A DNA stretch of 64,000 bases from Candidatus Omnitrophota bacterium (GCA_043797125.1 JAZDPX010000045.1:72338-136337); one strand, 5' to 3'. Numbered from the stretch's first letter, positions 29,354 through 63,821 are shown. The notes: generated by a model from the letters alone, not told the origin. Made by a program: numbers and translations.

Positions 29354-31930
<2,577 letters not shown>

Positions 31931-32276: not shown

Positions 32277-33374
32277 TCATGCTATCTGCATAGGCAAAAC
32301 AACGTACAAATAATCCTCTTGGTCTTTTACCATGGCCGGCTTTTCCGCTCCCTGGAACTCTATGTTAAGCTCGTCCTGCTTTATGTTCTTTAGCCCCTCT
32401 AAAAGGTAGGTCGGGTTAAACCCTATGAAAAATTCTGCCCCCACATAACTACACCCCAGCTCTTCTTTTGCTTCGCCTATGTTTGGTGCAATCTTCGAGA
32501 CAACAACCTTGTCCTTAAAAACATCCAGCCTGATGGCCTGGGAATCCGGGGTGGTTAACAGCGCGGCCCTTTTTATGGCCAGCAAAAACTTTTCTTTCTC
32601 TATCGTTAATATGTCTTTATATTGCTTTGGTATTGCCTGCTCGTAGTTTGGAAACTCGCCCTCTATCAGCCTTGATATTATCCTTGTTTCGTTAATATTA
32701 AACATGGCCTGGTTTTCGTCGAAAGAAATGGTTGCTTGGCCCTCTGTTCCCAACATTTTGCTTATCTCTTGTATTGTTTTTGACGGCACAACCACTTTTA
32801 TGTTCAGGCCCTTTGGCAGCGGTGTTTGTTTTTTAATAATTGCCAGCCTTCTTCCGTCTGTGGCAACCATGGTTGTTGTGTCGTTGTTCAATATAAACAG
32901 TATTCCGTTTAAAATATACCTTGTTTCGTCGCGGCTGGTCGCAAACACCGTTCTTGCCAACATCTCTTTTAGGGTGTTTTGTGGGATTGTGAGTTTGTTT
33001 TTGTTTGTGTGTGTTGGTAGTTTAGGAAACTCTTCTTTTGGTATCCCGATTATTTTAAAAAATGTGTTTTTGCACTCTATATTAATTGTGTTGTTCTTTT
33101 TTGTTGTAATTTTTACCTCGTCTTCGGGCAGCTCTTTTATAATGTCTGTGAATTTCTTTGCCGGTATTGTAATGGCGCCGTCCTCTATTACCTCTGTTTT
33201 TATTGCCTCTGTGATGCCTATGTCAAGGTCTGTGGCGATTAATTCCAAAAACCCACCTTCTTTTGTTTGTATTAATATGTTTGATAGTATTGGTAGTGTG
33301 TTTTTTTGTGTTACCACTCCAATCACCCGTTGCAATCCCCCAAGCAAATCTTGCTTATTCACTTTTATTATCAT
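32277..33374 (-). CDS. dnaN: DNA polymerase III beta sliding clamp
   Basis: 365-aa ORF with typical three-domain beta-clamp sequence. Lies immediately downstream of dnaA. Confidence 0.9.
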   Translation of the reverse strand: MIIKVNKQDLLGGLQRVIGVVTQKNTLPILSNILIQTKEGGFLELIATDLDIGITEAIKTEVIEDGAITIPAKKFTDIIKELPEDEVKITTKKNNTINIECKNTFFKIIGIPKEEFPKLPTHTNKNKLTIPQNTLKEMLARTVFATSRDETRYILNGILFILNNDTTTMVATDGRRLAIIKKQTPLPKGLNIKVVVPSKTIQEISKMLGTEGQATISFDENQAMFNINETRIISRLIEGEFPNYEQAIPKQYKDILTIEKEKFLLAIKRAALLTTPDSQAIRLDVFKDKVVVSKIAPNIGEAKEELGCSYVGAEFFIGFNPTYLLEGLKNIKQDELNIEFQGAEKPAMVKDQEDYLYVVLPMQIA

Positions 33375-33460
33375 GTCATCTCCCCTACTATTAAGTTATA
33401 TATAATATAAATCTAGTAGTACTATTAATAAAGCGTGTGTATATGTGGATATCTTGGTAA

Positions 33461-34810
33461 CTATTTGTTGTTTTTAATGTTATACACAATTTTATCTATG
33501 GATTCTTTTATGTTTTTGTTGTTTATGACCTCTTTTTTTATTTTTTCGTGCGCGTGCAGTATTGTGGTGTGGTCTTTTCCGCCAAACAGGTTTCCTATCT
33601 CTGGGAACGAGTTATCGGTCAGCTCTCTAGATAAATACATGGCGACCTGGCGCGGAAGCGCGACGCTTTTTGTTCTTCTTTTACTTTTTATCTCCGCCAC
33701 GCTTATATTAAAATACTCAGACACAGCCTTTTGTATGGATTTAATAGATATTTCCTTGTTTTCTTCTGCCGCAACCTCTTTTAAAACCTCCTTGGTCATA
33801 TCCAGATCTATGGTTTTGCCTATCAAAGAAGAAAACGCGACAACCCTTATTAGGGCCCCCTCCAATTCTCGTATGTTTGTCTTAACTTTTTCCGCAACAT
33901 AAACAACAACGTCGTCAGGCACGCTTATAATCTCTTTTTCGGATTTTTTCTTTAAAATAGCCACCCTTGTTTCAAAGTCAGGCGCCTGTATATCCGTAAC
34001 AAGGCCCCACTCAAAACGCGAAACCAGCCTTTTTTCCAAAGAAAGGATCTCTTTGGGTGGGCGGTCGCTCGACACAACAATTTGTTTGTGCGCATCGTAC
34101 AGGGTGTTGAATGTGTGAAAAAACTCTTCCTGGGTGGCTTCCTTGCCGGCAATAAAGTGTATATCGTCTATTAAGAGAACATCCTGCTCGCGGTATTGTT
34201 CGCGGAATTTTAACATGGTCCTGTTTTGCAGCGCGCTAATCAGCTGGTTTGTGAATTTTTCGCTGGATATGTATGTAACCTTAAGCCGGGGGAGATTTTT
34301 AATTATATGTTGTCCAATTGCCTGCATAAGGTGGGTTTTTCCAAGCCCTACCCCGCCGTAAATAAACAACGGGTTATATGACTTTGCCGGCGATTCTGCC
34401 ACAGCCATAGACGCGGCATGCGCAAAGCGGTTGCTAGGCCCAACCACAAACTCCTCAAAGGAATACCTGGCGTTAAAACGCACTCCTGGCTGGATAAGGC
34501 GCTCAAAAGGCTTGGTAAAAAAACCAAGGCCCCTTTTCTCCTTTTGTTTTGCGTCGTCACTAACAGCGCCCCCCTTAGCAATGGTTATCTCGAAGTCAAG
34601 GGGCCCGCCGGCCGCACTCGTTACGGCCTTTTTAATGACCTCGCTATAATGCTCAGAAAGCCATGTTTTAAAAAACGCGTTGGGCGCCTCAATAATAAGC
34701 CTCCCGTCCGCAAGAGAAACCTGCTTTATGGGCAAAAACCACGTTTCATAGCCCTGCGGGCTTACTTCCTGCTTTATCTGCTTTAAGGCGCCGTCCCAAA
34801 GGTTTTCCAC
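33461..34810 (-). CDS. dnaA: chromosomal replication initiator DnaA
   Basis: 449-aa ORF with Walker A (GGVGLGKTHL), AAA+ sensor motifs and a C-terminal DnaA-box-binding HTH domain. Confidence 0.95.
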   Translation of the reverse strand: MENLWDGALKQIKQEVSPQGYETWFLPIKQVSLADGRLIIEAPNAFFKTWLSEHYSEVIKKAVTSAAGGPLDFEITIAKGGAVSDDAKQKEKRGLGFFTKPFERLIQPGVRFNARYSFEEFVVGPSNRFAHAASMAVAESPAKSYNPLFIYGGVGLGKTHLMQAIGQHIIKNLPRLKVTYISSEKFTNQLISALQNRTMLKFREQYREQDVLLIDDIHFIAGKEATQEEFFHTFNTLYDAHKQIVVSSDRPPKEILSLEKRLVSRFEWGLVTDIQAPDFETRVAILKKKSEKEIISVPDDVVVYVAEKVKTNIRELEGALIRVVAFSSLIGKTIDLDMTKEVLKEVAAEENKEISIKSIQKAVSEYFNISVAEIKSKRRTKSVALPRQVAMYLSRELTDNSFPEIGNLFGGKDHTTILHAHEKIKKEVINNKNIKESIDKIVYNIKNNK

Positions 34811-35012
34811 TTACACACCCCTTTTTAGCTATTCACAACTTATCCACAGCAATATTTAAGCGCGCGGACACGCGTAATTAACGCGGGGCATATTATAACA
34901 GAACAAAAATTCTTTTTCAAGCAAAATTTTCCGACGGAAAAATTAAAAATTTTTCCTTGACTGGGGAGTTTTATGTGTTATACTCGTATAACCGCACAAC
35001 AAAGGGTGTAAA
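34811..35012. promoter_or_regulatory. candidate oriC / dnaA promoter region with a perfect DnaA box TTATCCACA (34841-34849), a near-match CTATTCACA, and an AT-rich DUE-like tract
   Basis: Lies between divergent dnaA and rpmH. Sequence aaaattctttttcaagcaaaattttccgacggaaaaattaaaaattttt follows the boxes. Confidence 0.5.
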
Positions 35013-35150
35013 ATGAAAAAAAATCTAACATTAAAATCTAACCGGAAAAGAAAATATAAACACGGGTTCAGAAGAAGAATGTCCACCAAAACAGGAAGGC
35101 GTGTCCTGGCAAGGCGCAGACAAAAAGGGCGCAAAATCCTGTCTGTATAA
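35013..35150 (+). CDS. rpmH: 50S ribosomal protein L34
   Basis: Encodes [45 protein letters not shown], not listed in the provided track. Confidence 0.9.
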
Positions 35151-35182
35151 AACAAGCCCGCACAAACCCGCCGGCAAAACAG

Positions 35183-35392
35183 GTGAAAAATCTTTTAATC
35201 TGCGCAATAAAGTTTTATCGTTGTTGTCTGCGGACACACTTGGCCCCTGCGTGTAAATACCACCCGACGTGTTCCGAATACGCAATTGAAGCCATAAAAA
35301 CAAAAGGAGCCCTGCGGGGCTGTGCCATTGCAGCGTGGCGGCTTTTAAGATGCAATCCGTTTTCAAAAGGAGGCTATGATCCTGTAGGATAA
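35183..35392 (+). CDS. yidD: membrane protein insertion efficiency factor YidD
   Basis: 69-aa ORF with the conserved YHPTCSEYAIEAI...CNPF... core. Confidence 0.85.
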   Translation: MKNLLICAIKFYRCCLRTHLAPACKYHPTCSEYAIEAIKTKGALRGCAIAAWRLLRCNPFSKGGYDPVG

Positions 35393-35396
35393 AATT

Positions 35397-37013
35397 ATGG
35401 ATTCTCAAAGCAGGCTTTTAATAGCAGTAGCGCTTTCAGTGGCTGTGCTTGTTATTTACCAGGCAAAGCACCAGCCCGCTAACCGTATCACAACCGTATC
35501 ACAGCAGCAAAAGGCAGATACGGTTTCTGCTTCTGCAAACGAAACAATCGGCGGCTCAGACACACTAAAACAAGCAAGGCCCGGCACAACAGACTCGATT
35601 GAAAACCAAGCGCTCAAGATCGAGTTAACCAGCGACGGCGCCAGAATTAGGCAGATATGGCTAAAAAATTATAAAGACACAAAAACAAACGAACCAACGC
35701 AAATGCTTGACAGCAGGATTACAGACGCGTTGTTTACCGGGCCGCTATTGACAGAAGACATGTTTTTGCAGCAGGACAAGGCACAGCAGTGGGAAGTTGC
35801 AGAAAAAAGGACAGATTACATAAAATACACGTTTGGCGGGAGAGAAGGCGTTGTCGCTGCAAAAGAGATTTTTTTCCACAACACAAACTATGGCATAGCG
35901 TTACGGCTTAGCATCGCAAACAAGGCAGATATCTCCACCCCAGTAAAATATAAAATTTTGGGAGGTTCAGGTTTTTTAATTAAACAAGCAGGAGATGCAA
36001 ATTTTCTTGGCGCAGATATTAAAATCGGGCAGGATGCAATGAGGCTAAACCCGAGAAAATATCTTAATGATAAGCCTGCCATTTTTTATAATAGCCCGAC
36101 ATGGATATCAATGCGAGGCAGATATTTTTCATTGGCGCTCGAACCAAAACAGCAGGAGCAGGCGTGCTTTATTGAAAAGGAAGACGACAAACACGCGCGA
36201 ATGGGCATCGTTGTGGGCCCGACCACGCTTAAGCCAGGAGAAACGGTTACAAACGAATTTGTATTATATGCTGGTCCAAACGACACAGACCAGATAAAGA
36301 AGGTTTCTGCTAACATGGAAGATGTAATCACATATGGTAAGCTAACCCCAATCAGCATGATGCTGCTTAAGCTGTTACGGTTTTTTAATGGTGTTGTCAA
36401 TAATTATGGGTTGTCTATAATTATGCTGGTTGCGTTGACAAGCCTTGTGCTTTTCCCGCTGACAGGCAAAGGCCTAAGATCAATGAAGGAAATGCAGCAG
36501 CTGCAACCGGAAATAGAAGAGCTGAGAAAAGAGCATAAAAACAACCCCCAAAAACTGCAAAAGGAAATGATGGAGTTATATAAAAAGCACAAGATAAACC
36601 CGCTGGGGGGATGCCTGCCTATGTTTTTGCAGATGCCCGTGTTTATAGCCTTGTATCAGGTTTTAATGCGGTCTGTAGAGTTAAAAGGGGCAAGGTTTTT
36701 GTGGATTAAGGACCTATCAGAGCCGGACGCGGCTTTTAAGCTGCCGACAGCCATACCATTGCTGGGGCAATACATTAACATCTTGCCGCTATTAATGATC
36801 GGGGCTATGTTTTTGCAGCAGAAGATATCCCAGCCAAAAACAGGGCAAACAGAGCAACAAAAAATGATGGCTGTTATGATGCCGCTTATGTTTGGAATTA
36901 TGTTTTATAACCTGCCATCAGGCCTTGTGTTGTACTGGCTTACAAACACGGTTATAATGGTGTTTTTGCAGGAATTTGCATTAAAATCAACACCCTCGAC
37001 GAGCCACGCATAA
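35397..37013 (+). CDS. yidC: membrane protein insertase YidC
   Basis: 538-aa ORF with N-terminal TM, periplasmic domain and C-terminal 5-TM Oxa1 core (GGCLPMFLQMPVFIALY). Confidence 0.9.
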   Translation: MDSQSRLLIAVALSVAVLVIYQAKHQPANRITTVSQQQKADTVSASANETIGGSDTLKQARPGTTDSIENQALKIELTSDGARIRQIWLKNYKDTKTNEPTQMLDSRITDALFTGPLLTEDMFLQQDKAQQWEVAEKRTDYIKYTFGGREGVVAAKEIFFHNTNYGIALRLSIANKADISTPVKYKILGGSGFLIKQAGDANFLGADIKIGQDAMRLNPRKYLNDKPAIFYNSPTWISMRGRYFSLALEPKQQEQACFIEKEDDKHARMGIVVGPTTLKPGETVTNEFVLYAGPNDTDQIKKVSANMEDVITYGKLTPISMMLLKLLRFFNGVVNNYGLSIIMLVALTSLVLFPLTGKGLRSMKEMQQLQPEIEELRKEHKNNPQKLQKEMMELYKKHKINPLGGCLPMFLQMPVFIALYQVLMRSVELKGARFLWIKDLSEPDAAFKLPTAIPLLGQYINILPLLMIGAMFLQQKISQPKTGQTEQQKMMAVMMPLMFGIMFYNLPSGLVLYWLTNTVIMVFLQEFALKSTPSTSHA

Positions 37014-43066: not shown

Positions 43067-43086
43067 CCTGCCTGCCGGCAGGCAGG
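43067..43086. repeat. 20-bp perfect palindrome CCTGCCTGCCGGCAGGCAGG (REP-like family, copy 1), nested in a longer hairpin tgtccc...gggaca
   Basis: Same 20-mer at 46836-46855 and 53928-53947; degenerate copy at 53975-53994. Confidence 0.8.
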
Positions 43087-43420: not shown

Positions 43421-43441
43421 CGAGCCCTGTACCGCCCACCA
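43421..43441. repeat. 21-bp direct repeat of the tRNA-Val 3' end (CGAGCCCTGTACCGCCCACCA); att-like duplication bounding the GIY-YIG insert
   Basis: Identical to 43004-43024. Confidence 0.85.
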
Positions 43442-43492
43442 TCCGCCTTCGTGTATTGGGCTAGGTTCGTAGTAGATAGCCTTCGGCGGATT
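43442..43492. mobile_element. second copy of the MITE-like ~52-nt element (ATCCGCC...GGCGGAT), followed by ~130 nt with further inverted repeats (ttcgtagtagata / tatctactacgaa)
   Basis: Near-identical to 29374-29425, with one G/C difference. Confidence 0.6.
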
Positions 43493-43625
43493 TTAATCCG
43501 CCGCATGTTATCTGCTATGAACCGCAGAAGCAAAGTAGGCGGATGAGCCCGCCGTACGTTATCTACTACGAAGCTCAAAAGCCAGGAAGGCGGGCCAGAA
43601 AACAAAGCAGCTTTTTGCAGGGCGA

Positions 43626-46835: not shown

Positions 46836-46855
46836 CCTGCCTGCCGGCAGGCAGG
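46836..46855. repeat. REP-like palindrome CCTGCCTGCCGGCAGGCAGG (copy 2) within an AT-rich inverted-repeat spacer between infC and rpmI
   Basis: Exact 20-mer. Surrounding aaattcaaaat-type inverted repeats run from 46860 to 46950. Confidence 0.8.
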
Positions 46856-53927: not shown

Positions 53928-53994
53928 CCTGCCTGCCGGCAGGCAGGCAAAATCCAAATGAAATCCAAATGTCACCTGCCTGGCGGCAGGCAAG
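53928..53994. repeat. REP-like palindrome CCTGCCTGCCGGCAGGCAGG (copy 3, 53928-53947) plus a degenerate copy (53975-53994), followed by tgtcatt-type AT-rich repeats
   Basis: Exact 20-mer, then cctgcctggcggcaggcaag. Lies in the hldD-rarA spacer. Confidence 0.8.
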
Positions 53995-54115
53995 CATGAC
54001 AAACTTCAAAACAACAATTTTGTTATTTGATATTTGTAATTTGTCATTCATTTGTCATTTGTGCTTTGGCATTTGTCATTAACTTATAAAGCAAAATATT
54101 TTTATTACTTTTCAC

Positions 54116-54144: not shown

Positions 54145-54327
54145 AAAGATGTCCCTGCTGTGTGCGTGTTAAGACTGCGCGAAGTAAGAACCAACAAATT
54201 TATGCTGGGAGCCTGGTTTTAGATGTGGAGCGGCATGCTCTTTCAACAAGGAGAAACCACGAAGCATTTAACAGGGCACCCACCTAGTAAGAGGGTTCTG
54301 ATTACTTTGCAGCCTCACGCCATAAGC

Positions 54328-54402
54328 GGGGATTTTTAATGAGTACCCCCTGTTTTCTTTGTTTTCACAAAGAAAACAAAGAAGGGGGTACGAATTAATC
54401 CC
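54328..54402 (+). promoter_or_regulatory. long near-perfect hairpin (~30-bp stem, ACA loop) immediately 5' of the rarA start
   Basis: gggatttttaatgagtaccccctgttttctttgttttc ACA aagaaaacaaagaagggggtacgaattaatccc. Confidence 0.5.
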
Positions 54403-54430: not shown

Positions 54431-55780
54431 GATTTATTCCAAGCAACCACTCAAATTACAAGCCGCCTTCCTCTAGCTGCAAGAATGCGCCCGGCCACGC
54501 TAAAAGAATTTGTAGGCCAGGAGCATATTGCCGCAGAGGGCAAACTTCTGTCCAGGGCAATACAGGCAGATAAAATAACATCACTAATACTCTACGGCCC
54601 GCCCGGCGTAGGCAAAAACTGCCTTGCTATCATCATCAGCAACATCACCAAGGCGCATTTCGATGAGGTAAACGCCGTTACGTCTAATGTCGCCGAACTT
54701 CGCAACATTATTGAAGCGGCTAAAAACCGCCTAAAGACTACAGGCAAAAGGACAATCCTTTTTATCGACGAGATACACCGCTTTAACAAGGCGCAGCAGG
54801 ACGTGCTTATGCCTTATACGGAAAAAGGCGAAGTGATTTTAATAGGCGCGACAACGCATAACCCGTTTTTTTCAATAATAGCGCCGCTTATCTCCCGCTC
54901 CCTGGTCTTTGAATTAAAACCGCTTTCGCAGGACAATATTAAGGCCATTTTACAAAGGGCTGTTGATGACAAAGAAAACGGGCTCGGTAGCCATAAAATA
55001 AAAATAGAAAAAGAGGCGCTTGAGTTTCTGGCGAAAATCTGCGACGGAGATGCCCGGCGGGCGCTAAACGCGCTGGAGCTCGGGGGCCTGACGACAAAAC
55101 CCGCCAAAGACGGGTTTATTAACTACACGCTAAAAATCGCGCAAGAGTGCACGCAGAAAAAGGCGGTTGTATATGATAAGGATGAAGACAGCCATTACGA
55201 TACCATATCCGCTTTTATAAAATCAATGCGCGGCTCCGACCCTGACGCGGCGCTATACTGGCTCGCGAAGATGTTGTTTGCCGGCGAGGATCCGAGATTT
55301 ATCGCAAGAAGAATCGTAATATGCGCGGCCGAAGACGTAGGCAACGCTGACCCGCAGGCGCTGGTTTTGGCAAACGCCGCAATGCAGATATCGGAATTCG
55401 TCGGAATGCCGGAGGCGCGTATTCCGTTAGCGCAGGCAACTGTTTATATCGCCTGCGCGCCCAAATCAAACGCCGCATATATGGGAATAGAAAAAGCCCT
55501 TGCTGATGTTGAAAAAGGAAGGACCTTTGAAGTGCCTACGCATTTAAAAGACGCCAGCTATTACGGGGCAGAAAGATTGGGGCATGGCGAAGGATATAAA
55601 TACGCGCATTCTTACAAAGATCATTATGTTAAGCAGGAATATATTCCTAAAAAACAGATTTATTATGAGCCGACAGATATCGGTTACGAAAAAAAGATAA
55701 GGGAATATCTTGAAGGACTCAAGGCAGTGTCATTCCCGCGGAAGCGGGAATCCATAAACGATAGTTATCCACAACCGTAG
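54431..55780 (+). CDS. rarA: replication-associated recombination protein A (RarA/MgsA AAA+ ATPase)
   Basis: Walker A GPPGVGKN and MgsA C-terminal helical domain. Start MDLFQATT at 54431; the track's 54359 start lies inside the hairpin. Confidence 0.85.
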   Translation, partial: DLFQATTQITSRLPLAARMRPATLKEFVGQEHIAAEGKLLSRAIQADKITSLILYGPPGVGKNCLAIIISNITKAHFDEVNAVTSNVAELRNIIEAAKNRLKTTGKRTILFIDEIHRFNKAQQDVLMPYTEKGEVILIGATTHNPFFSIIAPLISRSLVFELKPLSQDNIKAILQRAVDDKENGLGSHKIKIEKEALEFLAKICDGDARRALNALELGGLTTKPAKDGFINYTLKIAQECTQKKAVVYDKDEDSHYDTISAFIKSMRGSDPDAALYWLAKMLFAGEDPRFIARRIVICAAEDVGNADPQALVLANAAMQISEFVGMPEARIPLAQATVYIACAPKSNAAYMGIEKALADVEKGRTFEVPTHLKDASYYGAERLGHGEGYKYAHSYKDHYVKQEYIPKKQIYYEPTDIGYEKKIREYLEGLKAVSFPRKRESINDSYPQP

Positions 55781-55804
55781 CGCAGGCTTAAGCCTGCGCT
55801 ACGG
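55765..55804 (+). repeat. DnaA-box-plus-hairpin element copy A (TTATCCACAACC GTAGCGCAGGCTT AAGCCTGCGCTAC GG), supplies the rarA stop codon
   Basis: 26-nt perfect palindrome GTAGCGCAGGCTTAAGCCTGCGCTAC preceded by TTATCCACA. Confidence 0.8.
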
Positions 55805-55834
55805 GTACCTAAATAGCGATAGGAGGAAACGCGC

Positions 55835-56050
55835 ATGAAAACTTTCATAGTCGTATTAATAGCAGCTGTAATAACAGCCGCCCTTTTCTTTAGCGTAAGC
55901 TCGTTAAAGGCAGAGCAAGGCGAACCCACGATAAAAGATCTGGCGAAACAGCTTGAGCAAGCGCTGCAGAATCAAGCAGACATTATTGCGAAGCTTGGCG
56001 AGATAAAAGAAGAGCTTAAGATTATCAAGGTAAGGTCAACCCTTCGCTAG
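55835..56050 (+). CDS. small membrane-anchored coiled-coil protein (71 aa)
   Basis: N-terminal TM helix (MKTFIVVLIAAVITAALFF) then an amphipathic helix. Good RBS (AGGAGG) upstream. Confidence 0.5.
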   Translation: MKTFIVVLIAAVITAALFFSVSSLKAEQGEPTIKDLAKQLEQALQNQADIIAKLGEIKEELKIIKVRSTLR

Positions 56051-56059
56051 AAACTCCAT

Positions 56060-56200
56060 TAAGAGGCCTCGGGACCGGTTTAGGGCGGGTCCTGTCTTGC
56101 CGAGCCGAAGCCCTTACCGCGCGCAAGCAAAGCTGAGCACGGTGAGGTGGCTCGGCAAGACACCCGCCTTTAATTATGGCCACCCCTCGGCCTGAAATTT
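56060..56200 (+). ncRNA. candidate structured RNA (possible 6S/ssrS-like) upstream of the MTHFS gene
   Basis: Long imperfect helix (gggcgggt/acccgcc and gtcttgccgagcc/ggctcggcaagac, 13 bp) enclosing a ~42-nt apical region. ssrS-ygfA(MTHFS) linkage is conserved in other bacteria. Confidence 0.3.
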
Positions 56201-56227
56201 CGTAAAACAAAAAAAATTCAAAGAGAT

Positions 56228-56315
56228 TGCTGAAATATTGTCAATGACGTAAAAATGGAATATTTCAGCAATCTCTCCTTTTACCATTGACAATCTAGTA
56301 TAAGCTATATATTAT
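56228..56315 (+). promoter_or_regulatory. perfect 18-bp inverted repeat (agagattgctgaaatatt / aatatttcagcaatctct) followed by sigma70 promoter TTGACA-17-TATTAT for the MTHFS-rny operon
   Basis: -35 at 56287-56292 and -10 at 56310-56315. The operator-like palindrome sits immediately upstream. Confidence 0.45.
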
Positions 56316-56354
56316 ACAACAAGGGGCAATTTCCCTTGACCCTAATAATATGAT

Positions 56355-56930
56355 ATGGTAAAATCTAATACTGCAATTTTGGAAAAGGTTAAAATCAGAA
56401 AGGAGATTTTAGCTAAACTGCGCGCTCAGAGCGCTTGCGACAGGCAGCGTAAAAGCGCACAGATTAAGGATAAGCTGTTTGCAGACAACGTTTTTAAATC
56501 GTGCGCCTGCGTCATGTTTTACGTCGCTAAAAATTATGAGGTTGATACGCAAGGCATGATAAAAGAGGCGCTTAAATTAGGTAAAAGGGTAGTAGTGCCA
56601 GTGACATCCGTTGGAGAAAAAAGGATAATTCCTTCTGAAATAAAAGACCCGGAAACAGAATTAGAAATCGGGCCGTTTGGAATAAAACAGCCAAAGTCAA
56701 AATATATGAGACCTGTGCCTGTAGAAGATATAAATATGGTGATAACCCCGGCAGTTGTATTTGATGATTTAGGCAACCGTATCGGACACGGCGCGGGCTA
56801 TTACGATAGCTTTTTAAAGACGCTACCACCGCCCACCCTTAGCGTAGGCCTGGCGTTTGATTTCCAAATTCTCAAGAAGGTCCCCTCCACCCCCTCGGAT
56901 GTTCCTGTCAAAAAGATAATCTTCGCATAA
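56355..56930 (+). CDS. 5-formyltetrahydrofolate cyclo-ligase (MTHFS)
   Basis: 191-aa ORF with the conserved GHGAGYYD motif. Confidence 0.8.
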
Positions 56931-56958
56931 ATACAACAACACAACGGAGGTAAAAGCC

Positions 56959-58533
56959 ATGTTACAAAACCTAACCCCCGCTGCGCTTATTCTCATTGCC
57001 TTAGTCTCATGGGTGGTTATATTTTTCTTGGGATATGCTGTTAGCAAATATTCCGGCAGAATGAAACTCGCCTCTTCAAGAGAAAAGGCCAAGACCATTC
57101 TAGAGCAGGCAAAAAAAGAAGCTGAGAACGCGCGCAAGGAAGCAGAGCTTGAAGTCAGGGACGCAAAGCTTAAGATGCGCTCTGATTTTGAGCAGGAAAC
57201 AAAAGACAGAAGGCAGGAATTAGCGGCATCGGAGAAAAGACTGACGCAAAAAGAGGAAAACCTAGACAGAAAAGTTGACCTCTTAGACGGAAAAGAGAGA
57301 AAACTTGGCGAGTCGGAGAAAGAACTCATTAGAAAACAACAGTCAATAGAAAGCGTGAAGTCCGAATTAGACCAGCTGCTTGTTAAGGAAAAAGAGCAAC
57401 TGCAGAGGATCACCAGGATGACCGCGGAAGAAGCGAAAAGAGAGCTGTTGGCAAGGACAGAAAAGGAAGTAAGACAGGAAACAGGCGCCATAATAAAGCG
57501 CGTGGAAGACGAGACAAAAGAACTCGCGGACAAAAAGGCGCGCAACATAATCAGCATGGCTATGCAAAGATGCGCCGCGGAGCACACCGCGGAATCAACA
57601 GTGAGCGTGGTAAGTCTGCCCAACGATGAAATGAAAGGCCGCATAATAGGCAGGGAAGGAAGAAATATCCGGGCCTTAGAAACAGCAGCAGGCGTTGATG
57701 TGATTGTTGATGATACTCCTGAGGCAGTTACATTATCCAGCTTCGATATGGTAAGAAGGGAAGTGGCGCGCATTTCTTTGGAGCGGCTGATAGAAGACGG
57801 GCGTATCCACCCCGGGCGCATAGAAGAAGTAGTTGAAAAAGTAAAAAAGGAAATGGAAATAACAATAAAAGATGAAGGCGAGAAGGCTGCCTTTGACCTT
57901 AACATCCACGGCCTGCATCCGGAAATAATAAAGCTCTTGGGCAGGTTAAAATACAGGACAAGCTACGGGCAAAACGTGTTGCAGCATTCAAAAGAAGCAG
58001 CTTATCTTATGGGAGTCTTGGCAAGCGAAGTAGGCCTTGATTTTAACCAGGCAAAAAGAATAGGCCTTTTGCATGATCTTGGAAAGGCAGTGTCTTACGA
58101 AGTGGAAGGACCGCACGCGAAAATAGGCGCTGACTTAGCAAGAAAATACAGAGAAACAGAGGCTGTTATACACGCGATAGAGGCACATCACCAGGACATA
58201 GAAGCCCGCTCTGTTTTTGCGGTGCTTGTGCAGGTGGCTGACGCCATAAGCGCTACACGCCCGGGAGCCCGACGGGAAACCCTGGAAAGCTATGTAAAGA
58301 GGCTCGAGACGCTAGAAGCAATAGCAGACTCGTTTAAAGGCGTAGCCAAGTCTTTCGCGATACAGGGAGGCAGAGAAGTAAGGATAATAGTTCAGCCTGA
58401 TAAATTAAACGAACTTGAGGCAATTACTTTGGCCCGCGATATAACCAAAAAGATAGAAGAGGGCCTGGAATATCCCGGCCAGATTAAAGTAACGGTGGTC
58501 AGGGAGACAAGGGCAGTGGAGTATGCTAAGTAG
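56959..58533 (+). CDS. rny: ribonuclease Y
   Basis: N-terminal TM, coiled coil, KH domain ([15 protein letters not shown]) and HD domain ([10 protein letters not shown]...LHDLGK). Confidence 0.9.
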
Positions 58534-58540
58534 TTAATGG

Positions 58541-58606
58541 TCTATAGTCTATAGTCAATAGTCTATGGGAATTGTTTAACCATTGACCATCGACCATTGA
58601 CTATAG
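58541..58606. repeat. ~66-bp imperfect palindrome in the rny-ymdB spacer (tggtctatagtc...gactatagacca, with internal tagtcaatag repeats)
   Basis: Outer arms are perfect 12-bp inverted repeats. Possible terminator/operator. Confidence 0.5.
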
Positions 58607-58625
58607 ACCAACATAGGAGTTTTTC

Positions 58626-59405
58626 GTGAACGTTTTATTAATCGGCGATATAACAGGCTCGCCGGGCAGGGAGGCGGTAAAGGCGCTTGTGCCCGGCTTA
58701 AAGAAGAAAGAAAAAATAGATTTTGTTATTGCTAACGCTGAAAACGCGGCAGGCGGAAGCGGCGTAACACCCGAGACTTGCAGCGAACTTCTGGATGCGG
58801 GAGTCAACGTGCTTACATCAGGCGACCACATATGGAAGCAAAAACAGGTCCTGGAAATAATCGGCACGGAAAAAAGACTGCTTCGCCCTGGCAATTATCC
58901 TGAAGGCGCCCCCGGTTCAGGCGCGGGCCTTTACGTCGCTGGAGATTTTTTAGTCGGCGTCATAAATGTGCAGGGCAGGGTGTTTATGGATCACATAGAT
59001 TGCCCGTTTAAAGCCGCAATGCGCTACGCGACAGAGCTGTCGAAAAAGACAAAGATTATTTTGGTGGATGTGCACGCGGAAGCAACAAGCGAAAAGATAG
59101 CCATTGGCTGGTATCTCGACGGGCTTGTATCCTGCGTATTCGGCACGCACACCCACGTGCAGACCGCTGACGATAAGATATTGCCGAAGGGCACCGCGTA
59201 TATAACAGATTTGGGGATGACAGGCCCGTTTGATTCCGTCATCGGCAGAAGAAAAGAACAGATATTGGAAAGATTCATCACGCGCATGCCCGTAAAATTT
59301 CAGGTCGCAGACAGCGACGTGCGCCTAAACGGCGCTATAGTTGATGTTGACGAGAAAACCGGCAAGGCCAGATCAATAAAAAGAGTTCAGATTGGAAAAG
59401 ATTAG
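58626..59405 (+). CDS. ymdB: YmdB-family metallophosphoesterase (TIGR00282-type)
   Basis: GDITGSPGR and GDHIW motifs. Conserved rny-ymdB linkage. GTG start. Confidence 0.8.
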   Translation: MNVLLIGDITGSPGREAVKALVPGLKKKEKIDFVIANAENAAGGSGVTPETCSELLDAGVNVLTSGDHIWKQKQVLEIIGTEKRLLRPGNYPEGAPGSGAGLYVAGDFLVGVINVQGRVFMDHIDCPFKAAMRYATELSKKTKIILVDVHAEATSEKIAIGWYLDGLVSCVFGTHTHVQTADDKILPKGTAYITDLGMTGPFDSVIGRRKEQILERFITRMPVKFQVADSDVRLNGAIVDVDEKTGKARSIKRVQIGKD

Positions 59406-60636
59406 CGGTATAGGCGCAAAAAAGAAGATATACACGGTAAGCGAGCTTACAAGAGAGATAAGGTTTATCTTAGAGAACAGCTTTCCTGCTGTGTGGGTCG
59501 AAGGAGAGGTTTCGAATTTTACAAGGCACAGCTCAGGCCACTGCTATTTAAGCCTTAAGGATTCTGAAAGCGTAATTTCATGCGTTATATTCAAAAATAT
59601 AGCAGACACTCTCAAGTTTGACATAAAAGACGGCGTTCGCTTAATCTGCTTTGGCAGGATAAGTCTTTATAATAAAAGAGGGCAGTATCAGTTTTATATT
59701 GAAGAAGCAGAACCAAAAGGCGTAGGGGCGTTGCAACTTGCCTTTGAGCAGCTTAAGGAAAAGCTGCAGAAACAAGGACTGTTTGACCAATCTCATAAAA
59801 GGGCCATACCTATTTTGCCAAGCAGGATAGGTGTTGTAACCTCCCCCACAGGCGCCGCAATAAAGGACATACTTAATGTAATAGGCAGGCGTTTCCCCAA
59901 TATGCATATAATTTTATATCCTGCCAAGGTTCAAGGAGACGGCGCAAGCCAAGAAGTCAAAGAAGGCATAGAAGCATTTAACCGCCTGAAAAACGTGGAT
60001 GTAATAATAGTCGGAAGGGGCGGCGGAAGCCTTGAGGATTTGTGGGCCTTTAATGAGGAAGTCTTGGCGCGCGCCATATACAATTCAGGCATACCAATAA
60101 TATCAGCGGTCGGCCACGAGATAGATTATACGATAGCTGACTTCGTAGCTGATTTAAGGGCGCCGACTCCGTCCGCTGCAGCTGAAATAGTCGCAGGCAA
60201 AAAAGAGGATTTCCTGAATAATATCGAGAATTTAAATCAGCGGCTAAAAAGCGCCCTGATGGCGGAATTAGATTCGGCAAAAAACAAATTAGAGGCATTA
60301 AAACAAAGATACGCGTTCAAACAGCCGCTTTTTTTAATTCAGCAGAATTTTCAGAGAACGGATGACCAGACAAAAGCCCTTAACCAGAACATAAACCATT
60401 TTTTGCAGGAAAAGCAGCACCAGCTGGACAATTTATCCAGCACCCTTAAGGCCCTTAATCCGACAGCGATTTTATCAAGAGGCTACAGCATTACGGCAAG
60501 GGCCGCAGACGGCAAGATAATCAAGGACGCCGAAGAATTAAACGAAGGCGACATCATAAAGACGCGATTGGCAAAGGGTGAGGTAGAGAGCAGGGTTGAG
60601 AAAAAGGACTTATCCACAACCGTAGCGGAGCCTTAA
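59392..60636 (+). CDS. xseA: exodeoxyribonuclease VII large subunit
   Basis: OB-fold N-terminus and catalytic core. The last eight codons and the TAA stop are encoded by a hairpin element. Confidence 0.85.
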   Translation: MEKISGIGAKKKIYTVSELTREIRFILENSFPAVWVEGEVSNFTRHSSGHCYLSLKDSESVISCVIFKNIADTLKFDIKDGVRLICFGRISLYNKRGQYQFYIEEAEPKGVGALQLAFEQLKEKLQKQGLFDQSHKRAIPILPSRIGVVTSPTGAAIKDILNVIGRRFPNMHIILYPAKVQGDGASQEVKEGIEAFNRLKNVDVIIVGRGGGSLEDLWAFNEEVLARAIYNSGIPIISAVGHEIDYTIADFVADLRAPTPSAAAEIVAGKKEDFLNNIENLNQRLKSALMAELDSAKNKLEALKQRYAFKQPLFLIQQNFQRTDDQTKALNQNINHFLQEKQHQLDNLSSTLKALNPTAILSRGYSITARAADGKIIKDAEELNEGDIIKTRLAKGEVESRVEKKDLSTTVAEP

Positions 60637-60649
60637 GGCTCCGCTACGG
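60610..60649 (+). repeat. DnaA-box-plus-hairpin element copy B (TTATCCACAACC GTAGCGGAGCCTT AAGGCTCCGCTAC GG)
   Basis: Same architecture as copy A, with compensatory gcaggc/gcctgc to ggagcc/ggctcc changes that keep the stem perfect. Confidence 0.8.
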
Positions 60650-60677
60650 TTACAATGACACAGATCAGGGGGGCGCG

Positions 60678-61009
60678 ATGAAAGAGAAGGAGCAGGATTT
60701 TGAAGGCGCGATAAAAAAGCTGGAAGATATTGTCGAGGAACTGGAAGGCGGGGATGTATCTCTCAGCGACGCTATCAAAAATATGAAGAGGGCATGAAGC
60801 TTTCCCAGCTTTGCACAAAAAAACTGCACGACATCCAAAAAAGGATAGAGGTGCTTGTAAAAGATTCATCCGGCAATCTCTCGGCAAGAGAATTCCAGGC
60901 GGAAAAAGCTCAGGAGTCTAAAGAGAGCAAGCCTGCCTATCCGGCAGGTAAACCCGCGCAGGATAAAAAGCAAAAGAAGTCGAAAGGGGCGGAGGGGCTT
61001 TTGTTTTGA
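60678..61009 (+). pseudogene. xseB: exodeoxyribonuclease VII small subunit, interrupted by a -1 frameshift at an A5 homopolymer (60776-60780)
   Basis: Frame 1 gives MKEKEQDFEGAIKKLEDIVEELEGGDVSLSDAIKN then MKRA*. The XseB consensus continues in the adjacent frame (YEEGMKLSQLCTKKLHDIQKRIEVL...). One extra A restores a single ORF. Confidence 0.7.
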
Positions 61010-61881
61010 AACCCGGCGCCTATTTAAAGAATAAACAAAGGCTGATAGACGACAAGTTAAACGCGCTTATTCCGGATGCAAAAAGTTTTCCGCCGCTGAT
61101 TTATCAGGCAATGCGCTACAGCATGGCAGACGGCAAAAGAATAAGGCCTATTCTTTGCATGGCCTGTGCTAAAATGTGCGCAGCCAGCGAAAAAGATTCT
61201 CTTCTTTGCGCCTGCGCAATTGAAATGATACATACGTATTCTCTGATACACGATGATCTGCCATGCATGGATAACGATGACTACAGAAGGGGCAGGCCTT
61301 CGTGTCATAAAAAATTCGATGAAGCAACGGCTGTTTTGGCCGGGGACGCATTAATGACGCTCGCTTATAATATATTGGCAGGCGCCACAAAAGGCCCCGG
61401 CATAAATAACCGTTTAATAAAAGTGCTGTCAGAGGCAACCGGCTCAAAAGGCATGATAGGCGGCCAGGTTGTGGACATAGGTTGCGCCCACAGCCCACAG
61501 CCCACCCCATACCATTCGCTTCGCTCAGGTACGGGGCAGGCAGCCCACAGACCAATGGATTTACCGACGATCGAGTACATAAACACCCATAAAACCGGCG
61601 CCTTGATAGCTGCCTCATGCAGGTTAGGCGCAATTATAGCGAGAGCCTCCAAGCGAAAAGAACAGGCAATTTTTAAATTCGGCGAATATATTGGATTTGC
61701 ATTTCAGGTTGTGGATGACATGCTGGATAACGAGGGCATGGCTAGGGTTATCGGTAAAAAGCGCTCGCATGTAAGGGCAAAAGATTTAATAGAAAAGGCA
61801 AAGGCCCAGCTTTCTACGTTTGGCAAAGATAAAAAGCCATTGCTGGATTTAGCGGATTTTATTTTAGAAAGAAAACAATAA
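61006..61881 (+). CDS. ispA: (2E,6E)-farnesyl/geranyl diphosphate synthase
   Basis: DDxxD motifs (LIHDDLPCMDNDDYRRG; VVDDMLD). xseB-ispA-dxs synteny. Contains a ~19-aa in-frame insertion carrying heptamer repeats. Confidence 0.85.
   Translation: MKPGAYLKNKQRLIDDKLNALIPDAKSFPPLIYQAMRYSMADGKRIRPILCMACAKMCAASEKDSLLCACAIEMIHTYSLIHDDLPCMDNDDYRRGRPSCHKKFDEATAVLAGDALMTLAYNILAGATKGPGINNRLIKVLSEATGSKGMIGGQVVDIGCAHSPQPTPYHSLRSGTGQAAHRPMDLPTIEYINTHKTGALIAASCRLGAIIARASKRKEQAIFKFGEYIGFAFQVVDDMLDNEGMARVIGKKRSHVRAKDLIEKAKAQLSTFGKDKKPLLDLADFILERKQ
61485..61507. repeat. GCCCACA heptamer tract (GCCCACAGCCCACAGCCCACCCC) inside ispA, part of a ~57-nt in-frame insertion translated as ...CAHSPQPTPYHSLRSGTGQAAHRPM...
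   Basis: Same heptamer, same encoded AHSPQPT peptide, as the giant-gene junction repeat at 25420-25447 (reverse complement). Confidence 0.7.
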
Positions 61882-61883
61882 GC

Positions 61884-63782
61884 ATGTTGCTCGATTCCAT
61901 AAATTCCCCTCAAGATTTACGCAAACTCGCGCAGGAAAAACTGCCGGAACTTGCCCATGAAATAAGAAGCTTTATCATAAAAACTGTTTCTGAAACAGGC
62001 GGGCATCTTGCCCCAAGCCTTGGGGCTGTGGATGTTATTATCAGCCTTCATTATTGCCTGAATACGCCGAAGGACACTATTGTGTGGGATGTAGGCCATC
62101 AGGCATACGCGCACAAGATATTAACCGAAAGAAGAGATAAATTTCATACGTTAAGGCAAAGAGACGGGATAAGCGGTTTTCCTAACGCGTTTGAATCGGA
62201 ATATGACGCGTTTACCGTCGGGCATGGTTCTACCTCTATATCCACCGCGTTAGGCATGGCAGCAGCCCGGCGCATAAAAAAGATAAAAGACAAGACAATC
62301 GCGTTTATAGGAGACGGTTCTTTGGGCGGGGGCATGGCGTTTGAGGCGCTAAATCACGCAGGCCAGCTGCAGGAAGACCTGCTTATTGTTTTAAATGACA
62401 ACGAGTTTTCGATATCGCGCAGCGTCGGAGCTTTCAGCAAATATTTAAACAGGGTCCTTACAAACCCCATATACAACCGCATAAGGACGCAGATGCAGGA
62501 TGTTGTAAAACGCATTCCCAAGGTTGGTTCAGCAACATTTAACGCGGCCAGAAAACTGGAAGAGGCGTTAAAAAATTTACTCGTACCCGGTATAATATTT
62601 GAAGAGATGGGCATAAGGTATTTTGGCCCGGTAGACGGACACAACATAAACGCGACGATAGGCCTGTTAAAAAATGTGATACCCATTAAAGGGCCGCGCA
62701 TAATTCACGTTGTTACAAAAAAAGGCAAAGGTTATGAGCTTGCGGAAAAATCACCCCACAGATTCCATGGCACCACGCCTTTTAATATAGACAGCGGCGA
62801 GAATAAAACTGCAAGCAGTTTTAGTTTTACAGACGCGTTCAGCCAGAAACTTATTGAGCTTGCAAGCTCAGACGATAAAATTATTGCCGTAACAGCAGCC
62901 ATGCCGGAAGGCACGGGCCTTGACGCGTTTCATGAAAAATTCCCAAACAGATTTTTTAATGTCGGCATAGCCGAAGAGCACGCCGTAGGCCTGGCAGCGG
63001 GCCTTGCAAAAAGCGCTCTTGTGCCTGTTGTCGCGATTTATTCCACATTTTTGCAGCGTTCATACGATCAGATAATACACGATGTGGCGCTGCAGAATTT
63101 GCATGTTGTGTTTTGCCTTGACAGGGCAGGCCTTGTGGGCGAGGACGGGCCTACGCATCACGGAAATTTCGATATAGCGTTTATGCGCCACGTCCCGAAT
63201 ATTGTATGTATGGCGCCAAAGGACCAGCAAGAACTCATGGATATGCTTGAATTCGCCATATACAAGGTTAAAGGCCCTGTGGCGATACGCTACCCCAGAG
63301 GTAGCGTGACCCAAAGACCAGGCAGCTCATCTAGTAGCGCAGGCTTAAGCCTGCGCTACTCTGGCGGAGCAGAGATTCAACTCGGCAAGGCAGAAGTTTT
63401 AAGAGAAGGCAAGCACGTAGCCATATTAACAATCGGCTCAATGGCACAAGCCTCTTTAGAAGCCGCTGATATTTTATCGGAATATAAGATTTCAGCCGAG
63501 GTTGTTAATATGAGATTTATAAAGCCTATCGATGAAGACCTCATGAGAAAGCTTTGCCAGCGCATAAGGCATATTGTTACTGTTGAGGACGGCTGCCTTA
63601 AATGCGGGTTTGGTTCGGCTATTCTTGAGACAATAAATAAATCAGGAATAAAAAATTTAAGCGTAGAAACCTTAGGCCTGCCGGATGAATTCATTACGCA
63701 TGGGAAAAAAGACCAGCTTCTTTCGGATTATGGCTTAGATGCAAAAGGCATCGCTTCGACGGTGAAGGCCTTATTAAAGTAA
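61884..63782 (+). CDS. dxs: 1-deoxy-D-xylulose-5-phosphate synthase
   Basis: TPP-binding GDG...N motif (IGDGSLGGGMAFEALN) and transketolase-like domains. Carries an in-frame palindrome insertion. Confidence 0.9.
   Translation: MLLDSINSPQDLRKLAQEKLPELAHEIRSFIIKTVSETGGHLAPSLGAVDVIISLHYCLNTPKDTIVWDVGHQAYAHKILTERRDKFHTLRQRDGISGFPNAFESEYDAFTVGHGSTSISTALGMAAARRIKKIKDKTIAFIGDGSLGGGMAFEALNHAGQLQEDLLIVLNDNEFSISRSVGAFSKYLNRVLTNPIYNRIRTQMQDVVKRIPKVGSATFNAARKLEEALKNLLVPGIIFEEMGIRYFGPVDGHNINATIGLLKNVIPIKGPRIIHVVTKKGKGYELAEKSPHRFHGTTPFNIDSGENKTASSFSFTDAFSQKLIELASSDDKIIAVTAAMPEGTGLDAFHEKFPNRFFNVGIAEEHAVGLAAGLAKSALVPVVAIYSTFLQRSYDQIIHDVALQNLHVVFCLDRAGLVGEDGPTHHGNFDIAFMRHVPNIVCMAPKDQQELMDMLEFAIYKVKGPVAIRYPRGSVTQRPGSSSSSAGLSLRYSGGAEIQLGKAEVLREGKHVAILTIGSMAQASLEAADILSEYKISAEVVNMRFIKPIDEDLMRKLCQRIRHIVTVEDGCLKCGFGSAILETINKSGIKNLSVETLGLPDEFITHGKKDQLLSDYGLDAKGIASTVKALLK
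63334..63359. repeat. 26-nt perfect palindrome GTAGCGCAGGCTTAAGCCTGCGCTAC inserted in-frame within dxs (translated SSAGLSLRYS)
   Basis: Identical to the hairpin of element copy A. Lies in a ~12-aa segment absent from E. coli Dxs, between RYPRG and the LGKAE region. Confidence 0.7.
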
Positions 63783-63783
63783 G

Positions 63784-63821
63784 TTATCCACAACCGTAGC
63801 GGAGCCTTAAGGCTCCGCTAC
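63784..63821 (+). repeat. DnaA-box-plus-hairpin element copy C, just 3' of the dxs stop
   Basis: TTATCCACAACCGTAGCGGAGCCTTAAGGCTCCGCTAC. Confidence 0.8.

Follow-up and report, generated by a model that had tools for sequence, protein, structure and literature searches.

Probable GTAG-type REP palindromes, three of them beside a DnaA-box-like 9-mer, at gene ends of a Candidatus Omnitrophota bacterium

Introduction

In a 64,000-nt stretch of a Candidatus Omnitrophota genome (GCA_043797125.1 JAZDPX010000045.1:72338-136337; this whole stretch is hereafter called the window, and positions are counted from its first letter), the genes rarA, xseA and dxs end within, or directly before, the same short element, a DnaA-box-like 9-mer followed by a hairpin. 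The locus therefore raises the questions of what this element is, whether it was inserted at these genes or is ancestral coding sequence, and what role a predicted binding site of the initiator DnaA could have beside it. An initial annotation, made from the sequence alone, had described three copies and had offered mRNA 3′ stabilisers resembling repetitive extragenic palindromic (REP) sequences, DnaA-titration sites or mobile palindromic elements as possible roles. In this study, we consider the hairpins to be, with high probability, GTAG-type REPs, a known kind of bacterial repeat that is short, non-autonomous and mobilised by a REP-associated tyrosine transposase (RAYT) whose gene lies elsewhere in the genome. 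The direct observations described below comprise the sequence family, the RAYT genes found together with it in other genomes, the covariation of its stem, the empty orthologous sites in relatives and the enrichment at the ends of open reading frames (ORFs).

Results

The repeated unit in the window

A search of the window found the 12-mer TTATCCACAACC exactly at 55765, 60610 and 63784, each time on the + strand, while the shuffled-sequence expectation, even with up to one mismatch, was 0.28 matches. Each 12-mer is abutted by a 26-nt perfect palindrome (copies A, B and C; Table 1), of which none is expected by chance, and the palindromes share the form GTAGCG-N4-CTTAAG-N4-CGCTAC. According to a palindrome scan, the perfectly paired stretch is 30 nt long in copy A, and that of copy B reaches 34 nt. 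The three copies of the initial annotation were all exact and real, but they were an undercount, since a fourth palindrome inside the dxs frame had been overlooked; this copy D has the same sequence as copy A and lacks the box. As had been claimed, the inner stem differs in a paired manner between copies, being CAGG/CCTG in copies A and D vs. GAGC/GCTC in copies B and C. The unit seen three times consists of (A/G)TTATCCACA, a 3-nt spacer and the 26-nt palindrome, the latter with a GTAG head, an inner stem that is variable yet always complementary, and a CTTAAG centre; it is 38–44 nt long and forms a single hairpin.

The RNA fold energies of the hairpins, a check proposed by the initial annotation, were −23 to −32 kcal/mol with z values of −5 to −8, and the DNA fold energies were −13.5 to −19.5 kcal/mol. 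In the single-stranded DNA (ssDNA) fold, the box of the window copies is unpaired and lies 5′ of the stem. The elements are located 21–29 kb to the right of the predicted origin, in a row of co-directional genes. None of the copies matched an Rfam covariance model, whether gathering scores or E values up to 5 were applied.

The same palindromes bracket RAYT genes in other genomes

The form GTAGCG-N4-CTTAAG-N4-CGCTAC, with the inner four positions free, was scanned over one genome per species (596 Gb), and it matched at least 78 loci, compared with about 9 that we estimate to be expected by chance. Among the matches listed were many Omnitrophota, Syntrophomonadaceae, Anaerolineae, Planctomycetia, Elusimicrobia, Auribacterota and Saprospiraceae, a spirochaete, a cyanobacterium and others, and the free positions were complementary in 79 of the 88 copies of the listed loci. 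At least 6–12 strict copies were present in each of several other metagenome-assembled genomes (MAGs). An assembly artefact was ruled out, as the same 26-mers occur in many independent assemblies.

When the ORFs within 2.5 kb of the copies were clustered, a protein of ~160 aa was the only recurrent family directly beside the palindromes (5 loci). It belongs to the Pfam family Y1_Tnp, and its best solved structure is the E. coli TnpAREP (PDB 4ER8). An NCBIfam scan of five of these proteins (loci L047, L050, L061, L070 and L074) matched NF047646, the ‘REP-associated tyrosine transposase’, with 121–131 bits against a cut-off of 80, and the HUH motif and the catalytic Tyr are conserved. In total, RAYT genes flanked by repeats of this family were found in eight other genomes (the former five, L099, L100 and L101), with the strict 26-mer on both sides of the gene in L047 and L050. 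In the Omnitrophota MAG L050, the flanking REPs are the exact 26-mer of window copies A and D, and the hairpin supplies the last codons and the stop of the RAYT gene (..DVAQA*). In L070, four or five CTTAAG-centre variants surround the RAYT gene, including the GGAGCC stem of copies B and C; the 26-mer of copy B recurs at L070:3126 and is present in a 24-nt version upstream of the RAYT gene. The L100 locus carries ATAG/CTAT in place of GTAG/CTAC. Because the bracketing of a RAYT gene by repeats defines a REPtron, these results indicated that the palindrome is a GTAG-type REP, so that among the earlier proposals the REP-like or mobile palindromic element is the one that was borne out, in agreement with the empty orthologous sites in two relatives described below.

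Two further searches were largely negative. The 18-mer of the initial annotation, TTATCCACAACCGTAGCG, gave 12 matches in a metagenome scan, which we estimate to be about the chance level, and two or three of these 12 were REP-like (L081, L088 and perhaps L080). Viral contigs scanned for the palindrome gave 0 matches. As a separate observation, the RAYT gene of Syntrophomonas zehnderi (L074:6077-7250) is flanked by 79-nt tandem repeats, each of which contains two different GTAG-type hairpins and is a composite REP doublet.

The stem covaries across phyla

Covariation was assayed on 29 distinct 26-mers from many phyla, in which GTAG, C....G and CTAC (positions 1–4, 11, 16 and 23–26) were fixed. 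All 6 variable stem pairs had changed on both sides, and 96.6% of the cells were paired, vs. 78% in shuffles and 19–43% with slid partners, while G-U pairs occurred in only 3 of 319 cells. The selection on secondary structure that had been proposed from the window copies is therefore supported over the 29 variants. As G-U pairs are nearly absent, the centre is palindromic and the element is linked to RAYTs, the data point to selection on a DNA hairpin rather than an RNA hairpin.

Orthologous sites in two relatives are empty

Two syntenic relatives (L095/L096 and L097/L098), whose Dxs proteins are 70–71% identical to that of the window, were used for comparison. The order of the genes, which runs from pheT through rarA, rny, xseA, xseB, ispA and dxs to the POR genes, is identical in both, and several of these junctions in the relatives show overlapping neighbours or gaps of 3–30 nt. 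Neither a GTAG palindrome nor TTATCCACA was found in ~20 kb of the relatives’ syntenic loci. Consistently, the rarA, xseA and dxs products of the relatives all lack the window tails (Table 1), and the window XseA extends 11 residues past the end of the xseA family model. In a variable loop of Dxs, comparison with 11 homologues shows the stretch AGLSLRYSGG (~10 aa) to be an insertion. Homologues sharing the C-terminal residues had been named by the initial annotation as the outcome that would mean ancestral coding sequence; the relatives do not share them, and the outcome favours insertion. Since the relatives’ sites are empty, the odd C-terminal tails and the borrowed stops come from insertions, and since their syntenic loci have neither box nor palindrome, the box arrived together with the hairpin. 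One relative (P0005/L095) has a different palindrome, CCTGCCGGCAGG, which encodes CLPAGR in the same Dxs loop.

A miniature inverted-repeat transposable element was considered and rejected, because the unit is a single hairpin of 38–44 nt vs. 70–300 bp with terminal inverted repeats round an unrelated core, and no target-site duplication was visible against the empty sites, which are too diverged for base-level mapping.

Other irregularities were noted in the same genes. Just upstream of copy A lies a hairpin, TTCCCGCGGAAGCGGGAA, which encodes SFPRKRES in the rarA tail and has no second copy in the window, so this tail is built from two different palindromes. The window IspA carries a ~20-aa insertion, CAHSPQPTPYHSLRSGTGQAA, which is absent from both syntenic relatives; the DNA encoding it is imperfectly palindromic, and it may represent a further small element within a coding loop. 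The xseB gene is split into two frames, with an A missing from an A-run, while the relatives read AIKKYEEGMKLSQ.. uninterrupted, and the split in the window is either an assembly error or a real frameshift.

The palindrome donates stop codons and lies at gene ends

The ORF listing confirmed the frames that had been described: rarA ends at the TAG of the GTAG head with the tail ..SYPQP, and xseA ends at the TAA of the hairpin loop with the tail LSTTVAEP, while the dxs stop is located one base before the copy C box. Of the three frames of the palindrome, one contains TAG, a second contains TAA and the third is stop-free, and all three outcomes are seen in the window. The recruitment of C-terminal codons and stop codons emphasised by the initial annotation is thus correct, but it is a mechanical outcome of a palindrome with stops in two of its three frames, and it has already been described, as the ends of GTAG REPs frequently supply the TAG stop of flanking ORFs (Di Nocera et al., 2013, PMC3733652). 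REPs are also found inside ORFs, and their sub-families differ by complementary stem changes (PMC3733652). Stop donation, an intragenic copy and stem covariation are therefore known behaviour of GTAG REPs.

To quantify the position, 92 copies were scored relative to ORFs of at least 150 codons and compared with random positions. An ORF stop lay inside the unit in 27% of the copies vs. 6.5% of random positions, and a further 13% vs. 3.2% were located within 40 nt past an ORF stop, so that in total 40% of the copies, and only 10% of random positions, were at or within 40 nt of a long-ORF stop. Inside a long ORF were 15% of the copies, compared with 69% of random positions. The copies are mostly extragenic and 3′ of genes.

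The DnaA box is a recurrent but dispensable part of the unit

The 9-mer TTATCCACA is perfect in all three box-bearing window copies and fits the TTATCCACA/TTWTNCACA consensus. The same perfect 9-mer, which the initial annotation had reported at the predicted oriC, was confirmed 30 nt upstream of dnaA. Across genomes, 26 of 92 copies had TTATCCACA, with at most one mismatch, 2–3 nt from GTAG on one or both sides, compared with a background frequency of 0.125% per side. Of the 43 perfect boxes in 590 kb, 27 were REP-adjacent, and 25 of the 36 REP-adjacent boxes were perfect. The box hardly varies, and AG usually precedes it; its most variable position is position 5, the N of TTATNCACA, while the 2–3 nt spacer is diverse in sequence and the REP stems differ between genomes. 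It occurs on one side, on the other, or on both, and in the last case a palindrome of ~50 nt results. The double-box copies L060 and L013, from other genomes, fold as ssDNA with the box in the stem, unlike the window copies.

The box-bearing genomes are mostly Omnitrophota, and copies of Syntrophomonas, Anaerolineae, Elusimicrobia and some Omnitrophota have no box. As many REPs of the family and whole genomes (nzgw291 and JACPAX) are without it, the box is dispensable for the REP. The RAYT orthologues L047, L099 and L100 have REP, spacer and TGTGGATAAC on both flanks in the same orientation, with the L099 and L100 proteins 55–56% identical to that of L047 and each gene adjoining the same CsgG-like gene, whereas the five REPtrons of the other RAYT clade have box-less REPs. 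The RAYTs beside box-bearing REPs are single-domain proteins of 155–173 aa. Longer RAYT homologues of 199–232 aa gave no Bac_DnaA_C match even at E = 1, and a tblastn search of all loci with the C-terminus of the window DnaA returned noise only, the L054 match being a GidA/MnmG-type tail.

The orientation of the box showed no bias, either relative to the adjacent genes (7 on the same strand, 6 on the opposite and 5 on both, of 22) or relative to local skew in GC and AT (7 and 6 of 18 loci), which argues against an RNA-level or strand-specific role of the box.

Tandem arrays were observed in the CALLYX MAG (L031:560-760 and 4150-4650; L054:4781; L060:1780-1880), where REP half-arms, GTAGCGCAGA.., are repeated up to ~8 times and mirrored round a central REP, and in L060, where 2 and 5 tandem DnaA boxes mirror-flank a REP. 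Judged by their arrangement, these mirrored arrays look like the products of repeated cleavage and rejoining at the element.

Discussion

How REP insertion would shape the gene ends

As GTAG-type REPs, the elements would be recognised and copied as ssDNA hairpins by the RAYT, a Y1/HUH enzyme. Known RAYTs cleave at CT/CA with GTAG as a guide, and the REPs of group 3 combine a perfect palindrome with a sequence-specific loop (PMC8266576). By analogy with such characterised REPtrons, mobilisation here would use the GTAG guide and cleavage at CT/CA on ssDNA, and the source genome would be expected to encode a cognate RAYT. The elements would have inserted into short intergenic spaces between the closely packed genes of an operon-like row and, in one case, into a surface loop of Dxs that is permissive for insertion; an upstream gene reading into the palindrome would then gain a short tail and a borrowed stop, as for rarA and xseA, while the third frame would be read through, as in dxs. 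The box module travels with the element in a subset of lineages, comprising Omnitrophota and some other uncultured bacteria, probably of the Planctomycetes–Verrucomicrobia–Chlamydiae (PVC) group.

Several observations weigh against identifying the hairpins as mobile REPs. Only four copies are present in 64 kb, all within 8 kb, and no RAYT gene lies in the 64-kb window. The RAYT-like genes labelled Omnitrophota that were inspected, P0131, P0138 and P0140, are not flanked by the REP described here. GTAG is paired with a 3′ CTAC, unlike the unpaired 5′ foot of classical REPs, and for this REP family transposition and cleavage are inferred from the characterised systems.

In a side observation, the Y1 proteins P0131 and P0140 (L092:300-1000 and L093:1900-2600) were found to be flanked by an inverted repeat, AAGACCGTTTCTA...TAGAAACGGTCTT, a terminal-inverted-repeat-type arrangement that is distinct from REPtrons.

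Alternative explanations

For the box, the most likely role would be a double-strand binding site for the host DnaA that is carried by the REP. On top of the REP identity, and compatible with it, the REPs may act as dispersed high-affinity DnaA sites that titrate or position the initiator, which we put forward tentatively, as possible but not as the probable case. The 9-mer is a consensus R-type box, exact across many genomes while the spacer varies and with position 5 as its most variable position; its association with the REP is far over background, the host DnaA is canonical, the same 9-mer lies just upstream of dnaA, and the random orientation relative to genes and skew is expected for a double-strand site. 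But many family REPs and whole genomes lack the box, and the three boxes in 64 kb are too few to estimate titration. It is about equally conceivable that double-box copies form an ssDNA hairpin with a duplex DnaA box which, A-site-like, could load DnaB: L060 and L013 do put the box in the ssDNA stem, and A-site hairpins with a single box support DnaA-dependent DnaB loading (PMC6127211), although the window copies have a single box outside the stem. In the other live explanation, which we consider slightly less likely, the box could be a RAYT-specific recognition or cleavage module that holds the CA dinucleotides cut by the enzyme and evolves together with a single RAYT clade, and it would be identical to the DnaA consensus by coincidence. 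All members of the L047, L099 and L100 clade have it on both flanks in the same orientation and the five REPtrons of the other clade have none, RAYTs cut at CT or CA near the hairpin (PMC8266576) and the box offers CACA 3–7 nt from GTAG, and tandem amplification has affected the box and the REP half-arms of one MAG in like manner. Such a module would have to match the DnaA consensus by chance, for which we estimate ~8e-6 for an exact match of a given 9-mer on either strand; furthermore, known RAYTs need just GTAG, the hairpin and a dinucleotide, and the RAYTs adjacent to box-bearing REPs have no extra DNA-binding domain.

The hairpin itself might act when transcribed, as a 3′ stabiliser, a processing barrier or a ribosome brake at overlapping stops, and the strong RNA folds and the position of every copy in a co-directional gene row, at or over stop codons, would fit this. 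REPs in general have been proposed to stabilise the upstream mRNA (PMC3733652), and this general proposal also counts in favour. We nevertheless regard an RNA role as rather unlikely, since G-U pairs are nearly absent among the variants, the orientation relative to adjacent genes is random, the syntenic relatives manage without the elements, and a palindromic centre is not required of an RNA loop; for these four reasons any RNA effect is probably a by-product of insertion. Intrinsic terminators are highly improbable and were rejected. The GC-rich hairpins do follow directly after genes, but, as the initial annotation had already noted, no T-tract follows at any copy, and a terminator scan called none of them; moreover, conserved operons such as xseA-xseB-ispA-dxs have copies between their genes, one copy is within coding sequence, and the same sequence recurs, unlike ordinary terminators. 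Still less probable, and likewise rejected, is that a dimeric DNA-binding protein uses the palindrome as its operator or that a restriction-modification system targets it, CTTAAG being an AflII-type site. The symmetry is perfect, centre included, as such a site would have it, but an inner stem that varies freely yet remains complementary is not predicted by a protein half-site model, and neither the sites at gene 3′ ends and inside dxs nor the association with RAYT genes agree with it.

Comparison with known systems

The element resembles the GTAG REPs and REPtrons of E. coli (REP/TnpAREP), S. maltophilia (SMAG) and Marinomonas (REPMb group 3) in being a short GC-rich palindrome with a GTAG head. 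It shares with them complementary stem sub-families, a position mostly after genes, TAG donation and some intragenic copies (PMC3733652), as well as a RAYT gene bracketed by repeats and, as in group 3, a perfect palindrome with a conserved 4-nt loop (PMC8266576). Unlike in classical GTAG REPs, the GTAG of the Omnitrophota element pairs with a 3′ CTAC and the element is fully symmetric, so its orientation is set only by the box. Further differences are a stem of 11–13 bp, at the long end of the known range, a CTTAAG centre conserved across phyla, a consensus DnaA box 2–3 nt outside GTAG in one lineage, and hosts that are uncultured Omnitrophota or PVC-type bacteria rather than Proteobacteria.

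Like the REPINs of Pseudomonas, the unit is non-autonomous, symmetric and apparently mobilised by a typically single-copy RAYT, and the RAYT occupies a conserved chromosomal position beside the same CsgG-like gene in L047, L099 and L100; unlike REPINs, which consist of two imperfect REPs ~70 nt apart, it is a single 26-nt perfect palindrome, sometimes with mirrored boxes. Copy D, in-frame in a permissive loop of an essential enzyme, is reminiscent of the Rickettsia palindromic elements (RPEs), as is the different palindrome that a relative has in the same Dxs loop. RPEs are 100–150 bp long and unrelated in sequence to the Omnitrophota palindrome, and to our knowledge no transposase has been assigned to them.

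The BIME/RIP-type composites of E. coli are REP-based units with a site for a host protein, the integration host factor (IHF), between two REPs. The present unit is alike in combining a REP with a site for a host DNA-binding protein, here a predicted DnaA box beside a single REP instead of an IHF site; IHF recruitment has been mentioned before (PMC3479197). The A-site of the ABC primosome is an ssDNA hairpin with a single consensus DnaA box, at which DnaA loads DnaB (PMC6127211). Hairpin and single box are common to both, but the window box is outside the stem, and only the double-box copies place it inside. Some Y1 transposases (subclass 2.1.2) carry a Bac_DnaA_C-like C-terminal domain, and the flanking repeats of these transposases are unlike DnaA boxes (Quentin et al., 2018, PMC6006769). 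This subclass is the sole published link that we found between RAYT-like enzymes and DnaA-box-type recognition, and the RAYTs found beside box-bearing REPs are without such a domain.

Implications

Insertions of one repeat family would account for the three odd C-termini, the 10-aa Dxs insertion and the repeated hairpins of the region. The range of REP/RAYT systems is also extended to Omnitrophota and adjacent uncultured phyla, and distant phyla have almost the same hairpin. The literature searched contained no DnaA box within REP, REPIN or RAYT systems and no palindromic repeats in Omnitrophota; what is new relative to it is that a DnaA-box module is conserved and that a fully symmetric GTAG...CTTAAG...CTAC hairpin is kept across phyla. 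It has long been asked why REPs and single-copy RAYTs are retained by their hosts, and a box-bearing REP subfamily offers a testable host-factor candidate. That the REP/RAYT lineage of Omnitrophota and related bacteria acquired a consensus DnaA box and has kept it under selection in the mobile unit is a speculative proposal, to which we give a rather low probability. If it holds, the box could titrate DnaA near the origin, could act as an A-site does by bringing DnaA, and with it the helicase, to extruded hairpins, or could place the RAYT gene under DnaA control, a box-bearing REP being located 100–170 nt upstream of the RAYT start; a REP family would then, for the first time, have a defined connection to a replication factor of its host.

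Feature coordinates

Table 1. Features of the window and their coordinates, with the protein tails compared in the syntenic relatives.
Feature	Coordinates	Strand	Sequence	Remarks
Copy A box	55765..55773	+	TTATCCACA	DnaA-box-like 9-mer; codes part of the rarA tail (..SYPQP); followed by spacer ACC
Copy A REP palindrome	55777..55802		GTAGCGCAGGCTTAAGCCTGCGCTAC	Pairing 55775-55804; rarA stop TAG at 55778-55780 in GTAG head
Copy B box	60610..60618	+	TTATCCACA	DnaA-box-like 9-mer; other frame, part of the xseA tail LSTTVAEP
Copy B REP palindrome	60622..60647		GTAGCGGAGCCTTAAGGCTCCGCTAC	Pairing 60618-60651 (34 nt); xseA stop TAA at 60634-60636 in loop
Copy D REP palindrome, box-less	63334..63359		As copy A	Stop-free frame in dxs, ..SSAGLSLRY..
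Copy C box	63784..63792	+	TTATCCACA	DnaA-box-like 9-mer; dxs stop at 63780-63782, one base between
Copy C REP palindrome	63796..63821		GTAGCGGAGCCTTAAGGCTCCGCTAC	Next gene, a ferredoxin-like ORF, from ~63830
rarA C-terminus			..KAVSFPRKRESINDSYPQP	Relatives: ..KKAQNKGEYHE / ..KIKKEM
xseA C-terminus			..VEKKDLSTTVAEP	Relatives: ..KVTDG / ..VTKRG
Hairpin in rarA tail	55733-55750		TTCCCGCGGAAGCGGGAA	
IspA insertion	61480-61550		CAHSPQPTPYHSLRSGTGQAA	
xseB	60678-61009			Frame split at ~60783-60790
Origin region	32277-37013			
dnaN	32277-33374	-		
dnaA	33461-34810	-		
Box upstream of dnaA	34840-34848		TTATCCACA	Perfect
rpmH	~35014			
yidC	35397-37013			
Second palindrome family	43067-43086		CCTGCCTGCCGGCAGGCAGG	46 nt past a tRNA
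Second palindrome family	46836-46855		CCTGCCTGCCGGCAGGCAGG	~20–40 nt past gene end
Second palindrome family	53928-53947		CCTGCCTGCCGGCAGGCAGG	~20–40 nt past gene end
Second palindrome family, degenerate	53975-53996			
6S RNA	54149-54336			Rfam RF00013, 85 bits
52-nt repeat, first copy	29373-29424			
52-nt repeat, second copy	43441-43492			
Inverted partial copy of 52-nt repeat	43495-43523			
Intergenic hairpin	56060-56175			−66 kcal/mol as RNA
Intergenic hairpin	56205-56300			−25 kcal/mol as RNA
Intergenic hairpin	58534-58625			−31 kcal/mol as RNA

Other features of the window

The origin region contains dnaN, dnaA, rpmH and yidC, and the host DnaA is canonical (TIGR00362, 574 bits). GC and AT skew change sign at 34–36 kb, where the gene orientation flips as well. 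As this gene set, the perfect box and the skew sign change coincide, the origin call of the initial annotation is reasonable.

A second family of perfect palindromes, CCTGCCTGCCGGCAGGCAGG, has three copies and a degenerate one in the window. It was also found at L097:18979, and it is the source of both the CLPAGR insertion in the Dxs loop and a PAGRQ C-tail in P0005/L095. A 6S RNA is located between an epimerase gene and rarA. A 52-nt repeat occurs twice with 98% identity, and after its second copy comes a partial one in inverted orientation, so that a long hairpin is formed. The intergenic spaces of this genome are unusually hairpin-rich, and three long intergenic hairpins were noted, of which the one at 58534 has arms built of short tandem repeats of ~7 nt.

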